A stretch of DNA of 64,000 nt from Macrostomum lignano (taxonomy: Eukaryota), in assembly GCA_002269645.1 (NCBI GenBank), contig NIVC01002954.1, positions 1-64,000 on the forward strand, in the 5' to 3' direction. Shown in pieces: positions 1-11,536 of the stretch. The notes beneath the pieces were generated by a model, which worked only from the letters and a program-made list of their open reading frames with translations, searched no databases and was not told the origin of the DNA. The first letter of the stretch is position 1. Each line of letters starts with the position of its first letter. The position numbers and the translations under genes were made by a program.

Positions 1-2008
1 TTCCAAATATGCGGTCGCAGCAAAATCATATCCTGCTGATGTGCTACCACAAACGGCTGCGCCACGAATAAAATGTGCGGCATCTGCTCCTCCAGTTCGA
101 GCACCAAAACCCATAAGAGTTCCCGTTTTATCTAAATCTCCCAAGTTCCACTATCATATGTAAAAAAGTTTTGCCCAATTAGCGTATATGTATTAGCTGA
201 TACATTGTATGTGCTTATTTGATACCAAACTCTTTGATTTAAAATATTAATTTCAAAAAGATGCCAATCGCCGTTATCAATATTAGCATAGGTTATAGTT
301 TGATCTGCGTCATTAAGAACATCATTACGAGCTGTTGCACCGTCTGATTTTATATTGCTCCAAACAACCCCAACTCTATCATGCCATTCACTCGCAAACA
401 CAATCAAGCCGGCGCGGGTTGTTAACCCGGATCCAAATTCACTTGTTGGACGTTCGTGACAATATGCATAAAACCAAACAGCGTCAGCACCATCTCCTGT
501 AGTATTAGCAACTCGGAAATAGAAGGAGGCGGATATATTACGAAAATGGGTGAAATTAAATTGTAACGCTCCAGACCGACCCGATGCTTCATCAGTAATT
601 CTAGCACCATTTTGATAATCTATATAAGAAGCATCTCCAACAAAACTTCCTGTTGGAAAAATATCGCCGGCGGTGGTTGGGTTTTGATACCAGTCCAATT
701 GCAAATTACGGGCTCGTACAAAGCGGCATCAATTGCAGGTATTCCATCCAATTTTATTTTATCATTAAAAGACATTCGGCCATCCGCCGTTGTGTTACTC
801 GCGTGTCAACATAACCTTTAGTAACAACAGAACTGTTATCGTTTATATTAGAGACATTGTGATCGTATTGGAACCCATATCAATTGATTGATTAACTACT
901 CCAGATTTAAATCAAAATTGTAAAAGTCTGTCTATAAATCTGAAAGGTTGACAGACCCGGGTTTGTAGCACCCGAAGTTGATGTAAGACAGAACAATCTG
1001 AAATATGAATATGTTTTATCAAAATTTTGTGTGACATTAATTGTTTGAGTTGAGTTATTTATTGCTACAGAACTATCCACAGGTATTAATACGTCCCAAC
1101 TTGTATTGTCATTACTTCCCTCAAATCGCCATGATGCTGGATGCTCGGTTGAAGGTGATGGCCTACCACGTAAATCAATTTTATAACACATTATTGCGGA
1201 AGGGCATTGAACCTGAATCCAATAATCGGTTTGAGTATTATTTGTTGCCCAATCTGTTGAATCATTTCCATCAAACGCTTTCCAACTTGCAAAATCAGTT
1301 GTATTAAATGCAGTGCTTGCGGTTATTGCAAAACCATTTCCACTCCAATCTGCCATGGTAGGTATGTGACCAGTTTCAACCGTTTGGAATCGATCTGTTT
1401 TGGGGCTCCACCCCAACTAATTATCAACCTCGTTTTGGTATAAGAATCAGTTATATTCTTTTAAATTTAAGGAATTATCAACTTCAGTTTTGCTATAAGA
1501 ATCAGTTATATCTCTTTTTAAATTTAGGGAATTATCAACTTCGGTTTTGGTATAGAATCAGTTATATCTCTTTTTAAATTTAGGGAATTATCAACTTCAG
1601 TTTTGGTATAGGAATCAGCAACATTCCGTTTTAAATTTAGGGAATTATCAACTTCGGTTTTGGTATAAGAATCGGCCGTATTGCGTTTTAAATTTAATGA
1701 ATCATCTATTTGAGTTCGAGAATAAGAATCAGTTATATCTCTTTTTAAATTTAACCCATTGTCAACCTCTGTTTTGTATATGAATCGGCTACGTTCCGTT
1801 TTAAATTTAGGGAATTATCTATTTGAGTTTTGGTATAGGAATCTGCAACATTTCTTTTTAAATTTAGTTTAGTATCAACTTCACTTTTTTTATAACCTTC
1901 ATCTTCATTAATATATCGGTTATCTCCGAATGTAACACTTATTCCACCAGAAGTACCACCACCAGTACTTGATGTTCCGTTCCATGAGGGTGTTCCAGAA
2001 AATAACAT
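1..2008 (-). pseudogene. Putative fibre/receptor-binding protein, frameshifted: N-terminal anchor, ~8 x 19-aa shaft repeats, F5/8C discoidin domain, C-terminal L-type (ConA-like) lectin domain
   Basis: ORF 1751-2008 starts at AAAAATG. 57-bp repeats at ~1420-1880 encode DSYTKTEVDNSLNLKRDIT. ORF 907-1416 has WKAFDG..W / YWIQV / SWRFEGSND..W / YSYFRL (discoidin). Linker reads IDMGSNTI...VVTKGYVD. ORF 132-704 has GDGADAVWF, and the continuation below 131 reads GFGARTGG..H.I (legume-lectin-like). Several single-base frameshifts join the pieces. Confidence 0.7.
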
Positions 2009-2032
2009 TTTTTACTGTCTATTTTATAGAGT

Positions 2033-2477
2033 CTAAAATCGTATAATGCTTTGCATGATCATCTTAAATACTTCGGGGTTTACACGAGCTTCATTCGAAA
2101 GTCGATATAAAAAATACAACGCGCTTGCCCGCAATAACTTTTATCAAATGTTTGAAATTGTTCGTGATGATCTCCACATAAACGATTTTTAGTATGATTA
2201 AATTTGTCTTTTATTTCCTGTAACGGAGGAAGCGCGTATGAATCAAAAAAATAAACAAGTTTAGGTTTGAATAAACTGCTGACCAATGAACACCATTTTC
2301 TTTTGTTGTTTCAATATTAACAATGAAACATCCATATTGTGGTAAGTCTTTTATCTCATCTCGCATAACACATCTGAATGGTTTTATTTTTAACTGCCTC
2401 GCCCAATTTGTTAATTCGATATTGCTTGTTGTGTCCGTTCCATATCTTTGTTTAAAATCATCCCACGTCATGGTCAT
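2033..2477 (-). pseudogene. Adenain-like (Ulp1/adenoviral) cysteine maturation protease, frameshifted
   Basis: ORFs 2211-2477 and 2080-2286 together give NGVHWSAV...YFFDSYALPP...QFQTFDKSYCG (His, Asp, Gln and Cys of adenain-type proteases). Confidence 0.85.
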
Positions 2478-2507
2478 TTTATGTTCCTGAAAAACTCTTG
2501 GTTTTAG

Positions 2508-2681
2508 TTAGTTTGTAGGTGTGGGTTTTAACAATTCCTTTCTTATTTTATCAGCTTGTAACTGCCTTAATTTTGCTAGTTCTAGTTCGTAATTATCTTC
2601 AGCTTTTTTAACTTTTTCTGATTGTTTTTTTATTAAATTATTATCGTGCTTTGCACGCGAACATGTTGTTCGATTACCCAT
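2508..2681 (-). CDS. Small basic coiled-coil protein (57 aa) with MGNRTTCS N-terminus
   Basis: AAAAATG start like other element ORFs, open frame between penton and protease; no recognisable domain. Confidence 0.5.
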   Translation of the reverse strand: MGNRTTCSRAKHDNNLIKKQSEKVKKAEDNYELELAKLRQLQADKIRKELLKPTPTN

Positions 2682-2719
2682 TTTTACTATAGGAAACGGA
2701 CAAAGTCCGTGAACCAAAG

Positions 2720-3508
2720 GTTCGATAAACCTGTTTTATACGTAAAATTATTGTTATTGATTGCCCACCAAAACTTATTAATCTATCGCTTTCATCTACA
2801 ATCCTAATATAAATTGATTGAACGCTATATTGATTTAAAGGATAATATATTGGGGTTTGGGTGCAACAATCATTTTCTCTCCAATTGGAACAGCAAGAAA
2901 TGGGATTGAATAAATAATTCCACGTTGAACCAAAACTCCGTTATTATCTGTTATATAACCACCGTTTGATATGTCGGTTGTTATATTAATTGTATTAACT
3001 CCACCCTCAATATTTCCACTGTATCTCCGGTGCTTGATGTGGTAACTATTCGGGAATTAAATCCAAGTATGGTTCTGAGTGAATTTGCAATTGTGAAATC
3101 AACCTGATATCCGGATCCTAGTGATAGTGTGAATCTGCCAGACGGTAAATCAACACCTATAACAATTGCTCCTGTTACCCAATCACCATTAGTTGTTAAT
3201 TCTCCTTCTATATAAGCATTCAAATCAGTATAGCTATACGCTCCTGGGTTAACGCTAAATGTTGTCCAATTGGCTCCGGAATCTTTAGAATATCTAAATT
3301 GATTATTTGTTGCATTAATTAATTGAGGCATGTTGAAAACCGAAAATAGAATTAAACCTATTTGATAACTTAGGCTTTGATCAAGTTGTAATGGATCGCG
3401 CAATTGAATCCGTTGCTCGCTGGTTGTCATTATAAACTGTAATGTTGTACTAAATTTTGAATTAGTTCGATCTACCAATTGTTTTATAGTATTTAAATTT
3501 GTAGTCAT
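2720..3508 (-). pseudogene. Minor capsid protein (penton), frameshifted near 3015; 3' end approximate
   Basis: NNQFRYS...PGAYSYTDLN...SLRTILGF in ORF 2981-3547; continuation in another frame reads VNTINITTDISNGGY...IYIRIVDESDRLISFGGQSITIILRIK, typical of Polinton pentons. Confidence 0.8.
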
Positions 3509-3527
3509 TTTTATAGTGGAAATTGTG

Positions 3528-4320
3528 CTATGTCTCTTCTTCCTCATTATCTTCTTTTATCAAATTTGTTAAAATTCTATGTTTCCTTTCTAACCTCGGA
3601 TTGATATAAATATGTTTGTATTGGCTATCATCCCAAATTTTTTTACACATACTTTTAAATGGTTTTGCATCCAATCCGGGATTAAATCTAGCGTGAATAT
3701 TTTGTAGATCATAGTTATCTAAATCAAACATTACACAACAGCTAGCATTCTTTTTTATAATCGATTCTAATTCTCTAAAGGATTGAGTAAGATAAAAAGC
3801 TCCAATTCCATCTCCTCTACCACTAACAAAAATTTCCTTTTGCAATTCTTGATCACCGTCATTAATACAATCATCAAAAATAATTAGTGTTTTATCATGT
3901 TTTGGAATTTGATCATAGGCTAATCGGGTTGATACTCTAACAGTTGGGCGCGATCGGACGAAGTCCGCGACCCTTCGGGGCGATCGGTGATGTTTTCTGG
4001 CTGTTGTGCCATTGTTTTACATAAATCCTCAATGTCTGCTAGATTAAATCGCGGTTCGTCATCATCCTCATATTGCTCATATGCTCTTAACATTCTAAAC
4101 AAGACATCTTTTTTTAATTTGTTTTTTAATCCATGTTTAAGAAATTCATAATATTTTATTCTAGGTTTATTAGTATAAATTATTAAATTATTATAGTCTA
4201 ACATTCCATCTGTTGTTAATAAATCGTAAACAAAGTGTGTTTTTCCTTTACCTGATCCTCCGATTACTAAACAAAGAAAAGGATCATTTGGAAATATTTA
4301 TTGTGTTTTGCCTTTACCAT
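3528..4320 (-). pseudogene. A32/FtsK-like DNA packaging ATPase, frameshifted
   Basis: Walker A LVIGGSGKGKT (~4240-4275, upstream of the annotated ORF start), Walker B TLIIFDD (~3875-3895), then SGR...FYLTQS; split across ORFs 3920-4204 and 3528-3845. Confidence 0.88.
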
Positions 4321-4371
4321 TTTTAAAGAAATAATTTAAATAGGCGCGACGGTCGGAGACCTGCACTCATT

Positions 4372-5841
4372 TTACAATGGCGCGTCCCGAACAATCGTGC
4401 CATCAGCTTTAGCAATTGACATATATTCCTCTAGAAACAATACGTGTGCGTCTATGCCTGATTACCAGTTTTATTAATCTCTAACATATAATTAAGTCCA
4501 ATATTGGCTACGTTTTCTTTCTGTGCCGTTAGATCATAAACAACCACTGGATGAATGTTTAGAAACTCTGTGGGTGTACTGAGGGACGGCATACGCTTCA
4601 TTTTTGGCATAATCTTGATAATATTTTATAAAATCATTAACATTATTATTTGCAATATTTAGATTAAGAGGATCTTTAACCGGATAATATTGATCATCAA
4701 CCTGCAGGCGGATATTCTGAACATTAAACTCGTTAATAGCTGCAGCCGCATTGTCTGTTGCGGTGGCTGCTTGTTCTGCTATGGCACCGGATTGAAGCCA
4801 ATATAAATCCCCATTTGCTCTTTTACTCCTTCTATTTGTTATCTTAAACCAAACAAAAATATATCTCACCCGACGTTTTGATGTCAATATTTGCCACTGG
4901 AATGAATCCTGATTGTTATTAATGGTTCGCATAAAGTGTCTACGATTCAAATAAAATATTTCCTGATCATGCGTTAACTGATTATCGATGTGTTTTAAAG
5001 GTGGGGCTGTTGCCTCAATGGTTGGTACGACTGGTTGAATTGAATCTATACGAACTGCTATATCGGTTGAAATTGAGGTTCCATAAAGTATCCTAGGCTG
5101 ATATCCACCAGATATTTGCAACTGTATCCCAAATTTTAATCCTTTCCATACCCGATTTGGTGAAAAGAACCCAAATAGTGGAAAGATTGAAAAGTCTTGC
5201 TCATATGCTGTTGCTGTGGTTAAAACCGCTACTGGGAATTTATTCTGACGAGCTATAAAACCTGTATTAATATCTTTTGTATTAGTCATGGTGGTTACAA
5301 CTGGAACTATGTTTGTATTAAGGTAAACAATTAGCGCTGCAGTATCTGCACCGGCTGCGTTTTGTACATTAGGGAAAACTACTGCTTGACCGTTACCTTT
5401 ATCCGGCATCCACCCAACATTATCACCAACTTGTTTTGATAAATAAGTATAATTTAAATGTTTCAAAACTCCATTAATCTCTGCGGGGTTTGATGATGTC
5501 TCAACCTCAGCACCATTAACAGTTAGTTGAGCTTGGGAAAAACATTTATAAAACCAATCATTTTCTATTATTATTCCGGATCGATCTGCGATATCTCCGG
5601 CTGCAAGAGCAGTTCCATCATTTCTAGTATACAACCATCTAACGCGGAAAAACGCATTTTTCATATCCAATATAGTGTTGGTTGCGCCGATGTCAAAAGT
5701 TACCGTTCCAGTAGTAAAGTTATTTGAATTATCACTTGTTGGTAGGGTATAATTTAAATCTCTTACTCTGACCTCATTAATATACTGTCGGTGCTTTTTG
5801 AAATGAAATTTATCACTCCACATAGTTTTTGTTTCAGCCAT
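4372..5841 (-). pseudogene. Double-jelly-roll major capsid protein, C-terminus frameshifted
   Basis: 435-aa ORF with ILDMKNAFFRVRW, FSQAQLTVNGAEVE, RYIFVWF, NIRLQVDDQYYP. An alternative frame continues VVVYDLTAQKE... to a stop at ~4372. Position next to ATPase and penton fits. Confidence 0.8.
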
Positions 5842-5875
5842 TTTTTTAAGTTAAAAAAGTTTTTTATGTTAAAAA

Positions 5876-6541
5876 ATGAGTCAATTTATGGACGTTGATG
5901 GAGAGTTAGCGATTTATAAAGAGAAGCAAAGATATTCTGATTTTGTTAGAAATTTACAAAAAAGAAAGTTAGGAATACAATTAGCTGGCGAAAGATTTGC
6001 TGCTCCTTTTGTTAATCCTATTACTGGGAAAATTAGTGAACTAGAAAAAACAGATAAAGATCTTCTGGAAAAAATTGCTAAAAATACGGAGCCAAAAGAG
6101 GATGAAATTTTGGATGAGCCGCCTGCTTATGATGTTGATCAAGCACAATTGAGAATTGCAGAGATTAGACGTGCAGAGCGGGGCGATCGGGAACAATATC
6201 CAAGAGTACCAGCTAGTATTGCTGCGACAGATTTAGGTAATAATAATTATCGAATTGGTGGAGTTGATAAAAATCGAAATGAACTATATAGAGAATTGGG
6301 TGGAGCATATAATATTGTTATGAACCCTAGGGTAAAGTTTAACCCTGATTTATATACTAGGGATGAATTAATAAGTGCTAGAATTTTTTATGATGAGTTA
6401 GGAGGAGCTGTTAAAAATACCAGCTTGTATAAAAGGATTGTTAATTCTATAAATAACAAACCAGCTGTTGGTGATGGATTTAAAACTCCTAGAAAACTTG
6501 TTTTAGCTGCTGCGAAAGCTGCTGGACATACTGGTGTTTAA
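5876..6541 (+). CDS. Hypothetical element protein (221 aa), divergent from MCP
   Basis: Intact ORF with AAAAAATG start; no motif recognised. Confidence 0.7.
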   Translation: MSQFMDVDGELAIYKEKQRYSDFVRNLQKRKLGIQLAGERFAAPFVNPITGKISELEKTDKDLLEKIAKNTEPKEDEILDEPPAYDVDQAQLRIAEIRRAERGDREQYPRVPASIAATDLGNNNYRIGGVDKNRNELYRELGGAYNIVMNPRVKFNPDLYTRDELISARIFYDELGGAVKNTSLYKRIVNSINNKPAVGDGFKTPRKLVLAAAKAAGHTGV

Positions 6542-6569
6542 TTAATTGTTAAATTTATTTTTTTATAAA

Positions 6570-7187
6570 ATGGATGAAACAAAAATTTGTAATAAATGTA
6601 AAGAAGAGAAAATTTTGGATTATTTTAGATTTCGTAGAGATCAAAATAGATATTATAGTATTTGCAAACCTTGTGAGAGAAAGTATGATAAAGAATGGTA
6701 TGAGAAAAATCGTGAATATAAGCTTCAATGGAAAAAAGAATATGATAAAAATAATATAGAAAGGCGCAGAAAATATCAAAATGAAAGAAGATTAACTGAT
6801 GAAAATTACAAACTTATTTTAAACACACGAAATAGAATATATTCTCTTCTAAAATCTAATAATGCTCGAAAAAATAATCATACTGTTGATTACCTTGGTT
6901 GCTCAATTGAATTCTTTACTGATTGGTTAAATTTCACAAAACATTATTATGTGCCAAAAGATTATATTGGTGTTTTGCATGTTGACCATTTTATTCCTGC
7001 TTCATCTTTTGATTATCGCGATGAAGAACAAATTAAAAAGTCTGAAAATTGGAGAAATAAAAGATACTTAGTTGCTGTAGATAATATTTCAAAAAATGAT
7101 AAACAACCAACCATAGAAGAATTTGCAAAACAATTGGTGCTTTCATGTATTTTTAAGGCTATTAAAAATGAGCCAAATAGTGTTTGA
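6570..7187 (+). CDS. Free-standing HNH endonuclease with N-terminal CxxC..CxxC zinc finger
   Basis: AAAATG at 6570. CNKC...CKPC, basic helical region, then DYLGCS and LHVDHFIPASSFD...N.RN...LVAVDNISKNDK (ββα-Me HNH of the type found in large DNA viruses and phages). Stop overlaps the next gene's start. Confidence 0.85.
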   Translation: MDETKICNKCKEEKILDYFRFRRDQNRYYSICKPCERKYDKEWYEKNREYKLQWKKEYDKNNIERRRKYQNERRLTDENYKLILNTRNRIYSLLKSNNARKNNHTVDYLGCSIEFFTDWLNFTKHYYVPKDYIGVLHVDHFIPASSFDYRDEEQIKKSENWRNKRYLVAVDNISKNDKQPTIEEFAKQLVLSCIFKAIKNEPNSV

Positions 7188-8770
7188 AGGAGGATTGTTA
7201 GATGTTCAAAAAGGATTAACAAGCTTACCACCAATCTTTACTACTGGAAGGTATACAAATGAATTACACATCCCATCTTACAACTTCGCGGGTGGAGCTC
7301 GAGCTGTGCCCGAGTGGTAGATGCAAAGCTACTGCTAGTCACTATTAGTGGCAACACCAGCCGCTCACTCAATCCCCTAAAGCTTTAAGTACCACTTTGT
7401 TTTCGAAAGATTACAAAGGAACAGAGGTAACTCCTCTTCCCAACGGTAACAAGCTTGAAGATAAATATATGGGCAAGAGTGAATCGAAAACCTAACCTCA
7501 TATGACTTGAGTATGGTTGAGATGCAACGACTGTACGCTGGTGGGCTTGAAGGACTTAGTCAATCCTTATGATAGCTTAAGACACAGTCTACTCCTTTGT
7601 GAAAGCAAAGGTATAAAGGCCGGGTTGACTCGACTCGATCTCCGATTAAATCCTGATAATACTCCAAAAGCCGATTCAATTCCCATTAACGGTATTGATT
7701 GGTTAGCATACTATCATGACTTAGCATACAGAGATGCTGATAAGAACTCACCCGAGGAAGCATTAAGATTAAAACATGAAGCCGATCAAAAAATGATTCA
7801 AGGATTAGATAACTTGCAGGGATTATCAGTAGGTCAGAGATTAACTAGGTGGATGGTTAAAAAGATTTTGCAGTCTAAAGTTAAATTTGGTTTGGGAATT
7901 AATTATAATCAACATGGAAATAATTGTGTTGAGTGTTTGTTGTTAAGTGGCGGTGGGTTAAGTTCTGATGAGGCAAAGATTCTTCATAAAGAATATCGAA
8001 AACCTAAATTTTATAGAAAAATCATGAACTTCAAAAAGAACGAAATTTGGTATGCTGATTTAATGTCTATGCCGAACGAAAGAGGATATAAATATATCTT
8101 AACCATATTAGATGGTTTTACTCGATACGCGTGGGCTGTTCCTTTGAAATCCAAAAAAGGAGAGGATGTTGCTGCTGCTTTTAGAAGTCTTGGAGAAAAA
8201 AGCGAACGTTTGTGTGTTGACGAAGGAAAAGAATTTTACAATCCTCATATGTATAAATTATATCATTTTGAAAAAGGACAAGAAAGGAAAAAGGACGCGA
8301 ATGGGGAGTATATTAATAAAATTTATTCTATTTATGGAGAGAGTAAAAACGCATTAATAGAAAGATTTAATAGAACTTTAGGTAAGAAATTATGGTTTCA
8401 GTTTAGTCTTAATGGTAACCAAAAATGGGTAAAAATATTACCAGACGTAGTGAAAGATTATAACAATTCATATCATTCAGCTATAAAGATGACTCCTCAA
8501 CAAGCTTATAACAATCCTGAAAATGTTAGGGTTACTTTTGGAAAATTTGAAAAAAAGAAAACTAAAGATTTTAAAGTTGGTGATTCTGTTTATATCTATA
8601 AATGGAAAGATAAGTTTGAAAAAGGAAGAAAAGGATATTGGAAGATAAGTGAGAAATTTACTATCAGTAAAGTTTTAAATACCAATCCTACAACCTATAT
8701 AATTGCTGATAAGGACGGTGAAGAAATATTGGGTTCTTTTTATGAGAATCAGATATTATCTGCAAACTAA
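7168..8770 (+). CDS. Parvovirus-type phospholipase A2 (PLA2X) fused to retroviral-like DDE integrase; exon 1 7168-7293, exon 2 ~7620-8770
   Basis: Exon 1 ends HIPSYNFAG (Ca-loop). Exon 2 has (P)G..RLDLRL...PINGIDWLAYYHDLAY (PLA2 HDxxY), then KFGLG, then integrase WYADL / CVDEGKEF / IERFNRTL (D-D-E) and FKVGDSV...GSFYENQI. Confidence 0.88.
7294..7619 (+). ncRNA. Group I self-splicing intron (IC1/IE-like architecture with P5abc, no internal ORF)
   Basis: P1: exon CGGGU pairs with IGS GCCCG 7308-7312 (U·G at the splice site). P3: CACCAGC 7355-61 / GCUGGUG 7537-43. P4: UCACUC 7365-70 / GAGUGA 7477-82 with tandem AA J4/5. P5b has a GAAA loop. P7: A(C)GACUGU 7527-34 / ACAGUCU 7584-90 with the G-binding G-C pair. 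J8/7-S element UAAGACACAGUC. P9: CCUUUGU-GAAA-GCAAAGG 7594-7611. Terminal G at 7619 (or 7618). Confidence 0.9.
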
Positions 8771-8780
8771 GTTCGATCAG

Positions 8781-9005
8781 TTACTTAAGACAACATGGTA
8801 GTAAATTTTTTATAACAAACAAAAACAATATTATTACAATAATTGTTACTAATATTATTATTGACATTTGTTCAACTGTTATCAAACTTAAATTTTCATT
8901 AAGTTCATTAATTGGAACATTTCCGATGTAGGAATAGTTTACCTTCATTTTTTTATATATATTTTTCACAATAAATGTCGTTTCTGTTATAGAATAATAG
9001 TTCAT
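8781..9005 (-). CDS. Small membrane protein (74 aa, single C-terminal TM helix)
   Basis: AAAAAATG start; hydrophobic IIILVTIIVIILFLFVI followed by a Cys pair. Confidence 0.55.
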   Translation of the reverse strand: MNYYSITETTFIVKNIYKKMKVNYSYIGNVPINELNENLSLITVEQMSIIILVTIIVIILFLFVIKNLLPCCLK

Positions 9006-9021
9006 TTTTTAAATATTTTTT

Positions 9022-9336
9022 TCACATAAAAATTTCACTTTCATTCTCTGAATCACTGGTTTCATATGAACTATTTGTTGATTCGGAATCTGTTGATCTA
9101 ACCTCCCAATCATCCGAATTTAAATAATCTCCAAGTTGAAATATTAACTCACCCTCTTGTTCTAAATCATACATCTCATCTAGCTCTAATGGATAAAGTT
9201 TTAGGTCGTGCTTGTCGTCATATTTTAAATAAACTTCATCAATTATTCCATTCAAAATATGTTGTTTTATTATCTCTGCATTTTTAGCAACAGTCTCAAA
9301 AGCATCACTAACAGAAAAGGTGTAAACTCGGGTCAT
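9022..9336 (-). CDS. Small acidic protein (104 aa)
   Basis: AAAAATG start, intact ORF, D/E/S-rich tail. Confidence 0.55.
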   Translation of the reverse strand: MTRVYTFSVSDAFETVAKNAEIIKQHILNGIIDEVYLKYDDKHDLKLYPLELDEMYDLEQEGELIFQLGDYLNSDDWEVRSTDSESTNSSYETSDSENESEIFM

Positions 9337-9390
9337 TTTTAGTAACAGAAAAAGACCCTTCGCGCCTGCGGCGCGGGCTAGGGGTTATAG

Positions 9391-9661
9391 AGTAGTAGTA
9401 TATAAAAAGACGCTTCTAGATCAGACCTTATTTTAATGGCCGTTTGTAAGGTCTTAAGAGGGGGGACGCGAGGGGGGTGTTGGGGAGTGTTTGGAAGTGT
9501 TTGGAAGTGATTTTTATTGTTAGGGGTGATTATGGGTGATTAGATGTATTAATGGTGTTTAGATGTGTTTTTTTATTTACCCCCCGTGTCCCCCCTCTAG
9601 ACCCTTAAAACGGTCATTAAAAAAGTGCTCTGGGTCTAGAAGCGTCTTTTTATATACTACT
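9391..9661. repeat. Element terminus (TIR end) that is itself an imperfect inverted repeat
   Basis: 9394-9420 AGTAGTATATAAAAAGACGCTTCTAGA is the exact reverse complement of 9635-9661; inner arms ~9430-9478 and ~9580-9625 are imperfectly complementary. Confidence 0.85.
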
Positions 9662-11536
9662 CTTCTGACACACAGTTTAGTGCTTCTGACACACAGTTTA
9701 CTGCTTCTGACACACAGTTTAGTGCTTCTGACACACACAGTTTAGTGCTTCTGACACACAGTTTACTGCTTCTGACACACAGTTTAGTGCTTCTGACACA
9801 CACAGTTTAGTGCTTCTGACACACAGTTTACTGCTTCTGACACACAGTTTACTGCTTCTGACACACACAGTTTAGTGCTTCTTACACACAGTTTAGTGCT
9901 TCTGACACACAGTTTACTGCTTCTGACACACAGTTTAGTGCTTCTGACACACAGTTTAGTGCTTCTGACACACACAGTTTAGTGCTTCTGACACACAGTT
10001 TACTGCTTCTGACACACAGTTTAGTGCTTCTGACACACAGTTTAGTGCTTCTGACACACAGTTTAGTGCTTCTGACACACAGTTTAGTGCTTCTGACACA
10101 CAGTTTAGTGCTTCTGACCCACACAGTTTAGTGCTTCTGACACACAGTTTACTGCTTCTGACACACAGTTTAGTGCTTCTGACACACACAGTTTAGTGCT
10201 TCTGACACACAGTTTACTGCTTCTGACACACAGTTTACTGCTTCTGACACACAGTTTAGTGCTTCTGACACACAGTTTAGTGCTTCTGACACACAGTTTA
10301 CTGCTTCTGACACACAGTTTAGTGCTTCTGACACACACAGTTTAGTGCTTCTGACACACAGTTTACTGCTTCTGACACACAGTTTAGTGCTTCTGACACA
10401 CACAGTTTAGTGCTTCTGACACACAGTTTACTGCTTCTGACACACAGTTTAGTGCTTCTGACACACACAGTTTAGTGCTTCTGACACACAGTTTACTGCT
10501 TCTGACACACAGTTTAGTGCTTCTGACACACAGTTTACTGCTTCTGACACACAGTTTAGTGCTTCTGACACAGTTTAGTGCTTCTGACACACAGTTTAGT
10601 GCTTCTGACACACAGTTTACTGCTTCTGACACACAGTTTAGTGCTTCTGACACACAGTTTAGTGCTTCTGACACACACAGTTTAGTGCTTCTGACACACA
10701 GTTTAGTGCTTCTGACACACACAGTTTAGTGCTTCTGACACACAGTTTACTGCTTCTGACACACAGTTTACTGCTTCTGACACACACAGTTTACTGCTTC
10801 TGACACACAGTTTACTGCTTCTGACACACAGTTTACTGCTTCTGACACACACAGTTTACTGCTTCTGACACACAGTTTACTGCTTCTGACACACAGTTTA
10901 GTGCTTCTGACACACACAGTTTAGTGCTTCTGACACACAGTTTAGTGCTTCTGACACACACAGTTTAGTGCTTCTGACACACAGTTTACTGCTTCTGACA
11001 CACAGTTTACTGCTTCTGACACACACAGTTTACTGCTTCTGACACACAGTTTACTGCTTCTGACACACAGTTTACTGCTTCTGACACACACAGTTTACTG
11101 CTTCTGACACACAGTTTAGTGCTTCTGACACACAGTTTAGTGCTTCTGACACACACAGTTTAGTGCTTCTGACACACAGTTTAGTGCTTCTGACACACAC
11201 AGTTTAGTGCTTCTGACACACAGTTTACTGCTTTTGACACACAGTTTAGTGCTTCTGACACACACAGTTTAGTGCTTCTGACACACAGTTTACTGCTTCT
11301 GACACACAGTTTACTGCTTGTGACACACACAGTTTAGTGCTTCTGACACACAGTTTACTGCTTCTGACACACAGTTTACTGCTTCTGACACACAGTTTAG
11401 TGCTTCTGACACACAGTTTACTGCTTCTGACACACAGTTTACTGCTTCTGACACACAGTTTACTGCTTCTGACACACAGTTTACTGCTTCTGACACACAG
11501 TTTACTGCTTCTGACACACAGTTTAGTGCTTCTGAC
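9662..11536. repeat. Host minisatellite, 21/23-bp unit CTTCTGACACACAGTTTA(G/C)TG
   Basis: Direct tandem array; explains the VRSTKLC/SEALNCV ORFs. Confidence 0.97.

Follow-up and report, generated by a model that had tools for sequence, protein, structure and literature searches.

Can a free-standing nuclease gene and a neighbouring group I intron that encodes no nuclease spread as a pair through a virus-like element of an animal genome? This question is raised by a stretch of 64,000 nucleotides (nt) of Macrostomum lignano DNA (assembly GCA_002269645.1, contig NIVC01002954.1, positions 1 to 64,000 of the forward strand), in the following simply called the window. Bases 1-9661 of the window belong to a Polinton/adintovirus-like element (34% GC), of which they form the right part, and host DNA follows. 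This element is inserted many times in the M. lignano nuclear genome (764 Mb), which 86 Wnt matches show to be that of an animal. Here, an HNH nuclease gene stands directly before a gene that fuses a phospholipase A2 (PLA2) domain to an integrase and is split by a group I intron. A first-pass annotation had proposed that both take part in collaborative homing, which has been described for phages, as in the case of F-CphI and the psbA intron of cyanophage S-PM2 (PMC6083498, PMC3984707). The parts of the locus are:

5876 to 6541, plus strand: conserved gene of 221 amino acids (aa), family not assigned, left boundary of the nuclease slot
6570 to 7187, plus strand: slot gene, a free-standing HNH/EndoVII-like nuclease with an N-terminal CxxC..CxxC finger, a long helix and a DH..N..N core
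7168 to 7293, plus strand: exon 1 of the PLA2X-integrase fusion gene, its last codon being the Gly of the Ca-loop
7289 to 7312, plus strand: P1 helix, in which a U-G pair marks the 5' splice site; from intron type A to type B, the internal guide sequence covaries with the exon end
7294 to 7619, plus strand: group I intron of type A, without open reading frame (ORF), placed after the Gly and before the Pro codon, so that it interrupts a GGNCC word
7620 to 8770, plus strand: exon 2, with the remaining PLA2 domain and, fused to it, the rve integrase; type A copies have a frame offset directly behind the predicted 3' junction

As a whole, the analysis makes it probable that a nuclease slot, occupied by the HNH gene here and by others elsewhere, forms a two-part drive module with the group I intron in a recombining Polinton population. 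Within this reading, the collaborative partner in the strict sense is most likely an Eco47II-like enzyme found in the same slot of other copies, and the HNH enzyme is a rival drive nuclease acting near the same site. We regard the system as a new form of collaborative homing, for which the second, Eco47II-like nuclease provides the best evidence.

The layout given in the first-pass annotation was confirmed for the most part. The HNH ORF (205 aa, no internal stops) is intact; its last 20 nt overlap the next gene, whose ATG is at 7168, and 106 nt separate its end from the insertion site at 7293/7294. No nuclease-sized reading frame exists in 7294-7619. Three intron-less copies of the same family confirm the insertion site; the motif, previously given as YxGPG, reads Y-N-F-A-G|P-G. 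In one such natural intron-less copy, the fusion gene is a single ORF of 424 aa with PF08398 (E 2e-7) and rve matches.

To what extent nuclease and intron belong together can be read from a census of the copies. The exon 2 motif gave 136 matches in the host genome. In total 174 loci were read, and after nine duplicates, the loci of other families and eight truncated copies had been dropped, 130 copies were classified, some of which may be allelic duplicates of the assembly. Four matches to the junction pattern (L044, L052, L053 and L065) were unrelated to these elements and set aside. HNH was combined with the type B intron in 82 copies and with type A in 16; the Eco47II-like gene was combined with type B in 20 and with type A in 7; two copies carried an acidic gene and three had no intron. 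The slot is thus held by HNH in 101 of the 130 copies, by the Eco47II-like gene in 27 and by another gene in two, and an intron is present in 127 (24 of type A, 103 of type B). All 27 Eco47II-like copies that were read have the intron, and 35 of 36 Eco47II-like matches extend into it, the remaining one being decayed. Lack of the intron in 3/101 HNH copies against 0/27 Eco47II-like copies is a difference too small for significance. HNH homologues in related elements without the intron, which, if common, would for the first-pass annotation have spoken against a pair, occurred in these three copies of the same family; of the 122 HNH matches, none shared a contig with the 19 intron-less copies that a second Polinton family has.

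The third slot occupant is an acidic protein of 153-155 aa without Pfam match (L020:1031-1489; L093). In two divergent intron-less copies (L165, L166), a segment related to this acidic protein replaces part of the upstream gene.

What would the second occupant cut? It is a protein of 167 aa that matches PF09553 (RE_Eco47II) with E 3.9e-5, and its relative P0157 passes the cut-off of this family at 30.2 bits. Atlas neighbours of the slot protein are the Eco47II and EcoO109I clusters. Its predicted model matches EcoO109I (template modelling score, TM, 0.61-0.63) and AvaII, with E below 1e-3. The specificity of EcoO109I is RGGNCCY and that of AvaII is GGWCC. Eco47II itself recognises GGNCC, according to PMC12376442. 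The Eco47II-like nuclease is under purifying selection, with a ratio of nonsynonymous to synonymous substitution rates (dN/dS) of 0.25, and E49, D65, E76 and K78 are retained in all 20 full-length alleles. Scans of viral contigs detected no relative of the Eco47II-like alignment and none of the PLA2X-integrase.

The intron lies between a Gly and a Pro codon, and every Gly-Pro codon pair spells GGNCC. Each of the four complete intron-bearing copies has no GGNCC at all, against 20.6-24.7 expected, and the same holds for four partial copies including the window (0 against 10.6-19.1 expected). In an intron-less copy there are 2 against 20.5 expected, one of which is the insertion junction. As these copies are related, the counts are one observation and not nine. 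Copy C486, whose left end is not included, was excluded from this comparison; it has 5 sites, four of them in an inserted inverted repeat. Among the 256 words of the form abNcd, GGNCC is the most depleted, with an observed/expected ratio of 0.02, the next one having 0.41. In 124 copies, 312 kb of upstream gene, slot, exons and integrase contain 0 GGNCC; 6 are found in one intron, within a foreign insertion (L147), and 7 in 65 kb on the capsid side, these coming from 4 copies and possibly including host flank. As controls, a third Polinton family of the same genome was not depleted (10 against 12.8 expected), nor were low-GC host stretches (15 against 16.4). In the second family, 3 GGNCC were found against 13.4 expected in 11.9 kb, two of them insertion sites; because partial copies were used, this depletion is only suggestive. 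At the protein level, Gly-Pro is absent against 5.6-8.7 expected; since Pro-Gly is low as well, we do not count this as strong evidence.

The first-pass annotation had aimed the HNH enzyme at the intron-less junction. It is the Eco47II-like gene, not HNH, that fits the avoidance of GGNCC as the candidate for cutting there, and the three intron-less copies keep HNH. One slot nuclease probably cuts at a word of five bases which the element has eliminated everywhere but at the intron site; intron and cutter appear to protect and spread each other.

The third Polinton-like family used as a control is GC-richer and adjoins a second-family copy on C273 (L188:6800-10000, L169:1-1700).

Important insight was gained from relatives of both nucleases that are encoded inside the same intron lineage. 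On the metagenome contig L196, the sole locus obtained in the metagenome scan, a PLA2X-integrase gene is split at the same Gly|Pro position by a group I intron, in which an Eco47II-like ORF (53% identical) lies between P2 and P3. In the second Polinton family of M. lignano (L198), an Eco47II-like ORF (67% identical) likewise lies inside a homologous intron at the same Gly|Pro site, whose core is 82% identical to type B; this family also has the 19 intron-less copies mentioned above. Genome-wide, all 28 scored matches to RF00028 adjoin the end of an Eco47II-like match, L198 being the one that was read. In the case of HNH, a search of 1.84 billion representatives gave P0005 (41% identity) as the closest relative, and the sequence of this protein runs on into the intron core (E 1e-14). 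The tail of P0005 is the same as that of the Eco47II-like protein P0170. Thus, the two nucleases appear to alternate inside the intron in another population, as they do beside the intron in the M. lignano element. An unrooted nuclease tree places free-standing alleles among intron-embedded ones, and as its key branch is weak (73/87), we make no claim on whether the nuclease entered or left the intron.

The HNH protein itself belongs to a large family (15,606 representatives at E <=0.001). H140, N163 and N172 are invariant in 19 aligned proteins, and the set including D139 is invariant or nearly so. It matches the PHROG families 'endonuclease VII' (E 1.7e-11) and 'HNH endonuclease' (E 5.3e-8), and has no match to a Pfam HNH family. 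The predicted model is confident, with a score of 91.5 in the predicted local distance difference test (pLDDT). Foldseek rows for this model are mostly HNH domains, but weak (E 0.27 or worse); the VIA fold search had its best Z of 6.0 to unrelated chains, a sequence search of the PDB found no relative, and the scan of viral contigs found just one distant phage-like HNH (L197). HNH is under purifying selection (dN/dS 0.47), and its catalytic residues are retained in 70-71 of 71 full-length alleles. Allelic diversity is highest at residues 1-104 (dN 0.23 vs 0.10).

Does the HNH cassette move? Seen from the intron, linkage with its type drops to the background level within ~60 nt on the upstream side and ~25 nt on the downstream side, and it is close to nil in all other parts; these genomes therefore recombine freely. 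As linkage along the element is so low, homing would probably take place among replicating genomes rather than between integrated copies. Near-identical alleles of the upstream 221-aa gene form clusters, and each cluster is followed by 3-4 different slot alleles. The HNH, exon 1 and intron block is found nearly unchanged on several flanking backgrounds: in nine copies with the HNH allele of the window, slot, exon 1 and intron differ by 0.07-0.5% and the flanks by 3-5.6%. Among 78 non-redundant copies, both flanks were more than 2% apart in 27 of 56 near-identical cassette pairs, compared to 2/34, 2/37, 4/73 and 2/31 for control blocks in the same test. These islands suggest movement driven by HNH. 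With regard to the co-conversion tracts around 7293 that the first-pass annotation had looked to, the excess of islands (27/56 vs 2-4 of 31-73) may reflect such tracts, but it comes from two clusters amid pervasive recombination.

The same observations can be read in terms of conflict and not of homing. The nucleases could be domesticated weapons, the Eco47II-like enzyme degrading competitor or host DNA in lytic growth, with protection by site avoidance and intron, and with ordinary recombination shuffling the cassette. Element-wide loss of GGNCC is what a short-site restriction enzyme without a methylase predicts, the rapid decay of linkage around the intron agrees with simple shuffling, and intron nucleases can serve interference competition, according to PMC11620839. 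It leaves unexplained, however, why both nuclease families are found beside or inside the intron in several lineages and why cassette islands exceed the controls, and we consider it quite improbable as a full account; as an added benefit it is compatible with the best explanation.

The two-part reading takes the intron to be removed from the RNA. The window intron scores 43.6 bits against RF00028 (E 9.4e-10), under the gathering score of 50, so that Rfam at the gathering threshold gives no match in the window. At the same site, the type B intron reaches 64.4 bits and is above the cut-off; a 40-kb Rfam batch missed it and a short-sequence scan detected it. Both types are 67% identical, span ~300-335 nt and have no intron-encoded nuclease; copy L147 has the foreign insertion mentioned above (~830 nt inside its intron A). 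G7619 was assigned as the terminal G by structure (P9.0 reading) and by comparison with the 3' end of the L196 intron. Exon 1 has a dN/dS of 0.24, and the 55 codons of exon 2 that precede the first Met have 0.07, with either intron type; this selection on both exons is indirect support for splicing. Because alleles recombine within ~25 nt downstream, the selection evidence for type A is not independent. None of the runs recorded as RNA contains the stretch. Two signs of splicing were rejected: the one joint across the intron in four contig sets presumed to be RNA has the same letters as a genomic intron-less allele (L120), and a polymorphism located 31 nt upstream accounts for the contigs that end at the exon 1 boundary.

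Several further features of these introns were observed. An optional peripheral hairpin of 30 nt in type B introns (e.g. L021:3782-4114) also occurs in the intron of the second family. At 7620-7650, a type-specific synonymous tract complementary to the intron 5' end is common to all 24 type A copies. The giant-virus contigs L193-L195, all the same locus and found by the intron motif, have a related intron close to the 3' terminus of the major capsid gene; the adjoining gene, which we take to be late transcription factor-like, contains a further two RF00028 introns.

In the mechanism that we propose, the Eco47II-like occupant would cut GGNCC. The element family would have purged this word by recoding, which is not available to the Gly-Pro of the PLA2 Ca-loop; there, the intron would split the unrecodable GGNCC in the DNA and would then be taken out of the RNA. 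When a cell is co-infected, almost the only site cut would be the junction of an intron-less relative, and repair from an intron-bearing genome would copy intron and nuclease, which amounts to collaborative homing by a 5-bp restriction-type enzyme. Such cutting would also harm competitors. HNH would be a second drive nuclease competing for the slot, nicking or cutting near the junction and co-converting exon 1 and intron. Whether HNH needs the intron-less junction or reads allele-specific exon 1 sequence seems to us about equally probable either way; in the latter case it may cut allele-specific sequence near the junction and take the intron along as a passenger.

A number of observations weigh against this reading, the first group of which concerns the role of HNH. 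All three intron-less copies hold HNH (two of them full-length) together with GGNCC, slot type is independent of intron type (Fisher p 0.27), and of 153 HNH relatives from two protein searches, P0005 is the one that reads into an intron. The cassette signal comes from two HNH clusters (7 and 9 copies) with non-independent pairs; four other cassette clusters have a single background each, and among the nine control clusters of the integrase there is likewise one with mosaic flanks on either side. With 127/130 sites filled, recent cassette movement is hard to explain by the cutting of intron-less alleles only; in many cases, the recipients therefore probably had an intron already, and this makes a target outside the bare junction more likely. 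Alternatively, HNH could be an independent free-standing homing nuclease (intronless homing or marker exclusion) that cuts heterologous alleles of exon 1 or the upstream gene regardless of the intron and is protected by polymorphism, with the intron brought near fixation by the Eco47II-like enzyme and merely co-converted as a neighbour. The intron-less copies with HNH are in line with this, as are exon 1 as the most variable segment of the locus (nucleotide diversity 14.6%), the diversity peak at HNH residues 1-104, and the fact that both multi-background cassettes are HNH cassettes though empty sites are rare. The closest relative of HNH is, however, encoded inside the intron lineage in the position of the Eco47II-like ORF, the usual place for an enzyme directed at the insertion site, and we thus regard an independent HNH as unlikely. 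Altogether, the two-part system of the first-pass annotation holds as a partnership of nuclease and intron, which is well supported (P0005, purifying selection on HNH, one block on several backgrounds), and fails for HNH as the sole partner, given the 27 Eco47II-like copies and the independence of slot and intron type.

The second group concerns the enzyme and the intron, for which cleavage, splicing and homing are deduced from sequence. The slot protein is below the PF09553 cut-off (23.8 vs 25.9 bits). No methyltransferase was detected among the 12 ORFs scanned (11 from one complete copy; two fibre-like and short ORFs excluded), and a 5-bp cutter would be toxic to the host chromosome. As it would damage host DNA, its expression would presumably be confined to virus replication. 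GGNCC is also low in unrelated DNA, with 5 against 24 expected in phage L197, 3 against 9 in giant virus L193 and 110 against 170 in the host part of the window. Under-representation is common, and it is complete absence that stands out. As to the intron, all 24 type A copies would run into a stop only a few codons on if spliced at G7619, and the terminal nucleotide of the type B intron is A in 74/103 and G in 29/103; regulated or alternative processing of the type A junction is possible. These junctions and the low GGNCC of other viruses could also mean a chance neighbourhood, in which nuclease genes were left or lost upstream by decay of composite introns, the introns are partly dead, and an outside enzyme (helper virus, symbiont) lies behind the GGNCC loss; that 24/95 HNH and 6/26 Eco47II-like alleles are not full length would agree. 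Purifying selection on both nucleases and both exons, with intact catalytic residues, speaks against such relics. Moreover, precise splicing is known for an intron ending in A (PMC6545197), and the truncations may be assembly errors or post-integration decay, so that we hold this explanation to be very improbable.

Regarding the remaining element, the following parts of the window were identified:

4534 to 5841, minus strand: major capsid-like gene, inferred from position and size; 490 aa in other copies, shorter here
9394 to 9661, strand not assigned: terminal repeat region at the right end of the element, whose left part lies beyond the contig start

The 490-aa capsid-sized ORF has no convincing Pfam match. 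Terminal inverted repeats and a 6-bp target duplication were found in all four complete copies checked, and an rve integrase, an A32-like ATPase and the PLA2 domain were all detected. An ORF of 1324 aa (L178:3471-7442) is polymerase-like and, as we assume, carries PolB-like motifs. Its sole Pfam match is PF02945, an endonuclease VII/HNH domain at residues 487-538, as in the nematode/oomycete Polinton pPolB2. HNH insertions in Polinton polymerases are already known (bioRxiv 10.1101/2023.08.22.554363). At 2800-5841 of the window, the frames of the ATPase, the minor capsid protein and the capsid end are broken or shortened compared to other copies, by decay or assembly error. The region of a fibre-like ORF at 907-1416 contains an F5/8 type C (discoidin) domain (E 9.8e-13), and a tandem repeat array lies at 9640-10730 immediately beyond the right end of the element. 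Besides the insertion in L147, foreign insertions include repeats within the Eco47II-like gene (L071, L108) and the inverted repeat in C486 (L184-L185).

How does this arrangement compare with known systems? Unlike F-CphI and psbA of S-PM2, the M. lignano case concerns a eukaryotic virus-like element in an animal nuclear genome and is known from sequence alone; two unrelated nucleases, one of them a short-site restriction type, alternate in one slot, and free-standing and intron-embedded states coexist in one genome. I-Ssp6803I, a PD-(D/E)xK nuclease of a composite group I intron, reads a long site of 17 bp (PMC3424549), whereas the putative site here has 5 bp and specificity would come from the lack of other sites in the element. 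The slot protein resembles type II enzymes like Eco47II (GGNCC), EcoO109I and AvaII in sequence profile, though below the family cut-off, and in predicted fold, with a matching site depletion. In contrast to type II restriction-modification, no methyltransferase was found in the 12 ORFs, and protection would consist of avoidance and intron. Chlorovirus restriction-modification systems offer a further case for comparison.

Among related viruses, Polinton-like viruses (PLVs) of protists show similar features, namely RF00028 introns of 309-376 nt in a short PLV gene and free-standing nuclease genes (PMC12220804); this report, in its available parts, covers few protist groups, leaves the intron host gene unannotated and does not describe an intron-nuclease link or site avoidance. 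Without introns, collaborative homing has been proposed for PLV helicase and polymerase genes (PMC11296320; bioRxiv 10.64898/2026.10.13.758929). With alpha adintoviruses and Polintons carrying PLA2X (PMC8502044), the element shares terminal repeats, the 6-bp target duplication, integrase, packaging ATPase and PLA2 domain, but its PLA2 is fused to the integrase and split by a group I intron; the sole passage on an 'intron' noticed in the available text of PMC8502044 concerns another virus group, and the accessible sections on coral polintoviruses do not mention introns (PMC11131425). A 2013 review, as far as its available text goes, places nuclear group I introns only in rRNA genes of microbial eukaryotes (PMC3679873). 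A literature search, carried out mostly without subscription papers, returned nothing on group I introns in animal Polintons, on an intron nuclease of the Eco47II type or on GGNCC avoidance in such elements.

In conclusion, we lean slightly towards the view that a five-base restriction-type enzyme could turn into a homing endonuclease through the genome-wide purging of its site by the virus, with an intron shielding the one unrecodable Gly-Pro site. In this view, the Polintons of a single animal nuclear genome preserve, next to each other, both the free-standing and the intron-embedded stage in the formation of mobile introns, together with two competing nucleases. As the nuclease target is exactly predicted, a test is cheap. 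A short-site cutter combined with genome-wide site avoidance may be a new route to homing specificity. Self-splicing introns would be placed in protein genes of an animal nuclear genome, where they are not expected. The more than 130 copies and the second family offer a population-scale snapshot of mobile introns gaining or losing a nuclease, a pathway that had been proposed from two phage cases. If true, collaborative homing, demonstrated in phages, would extend to a eukaryotic virus lineage endogenised in an animal.

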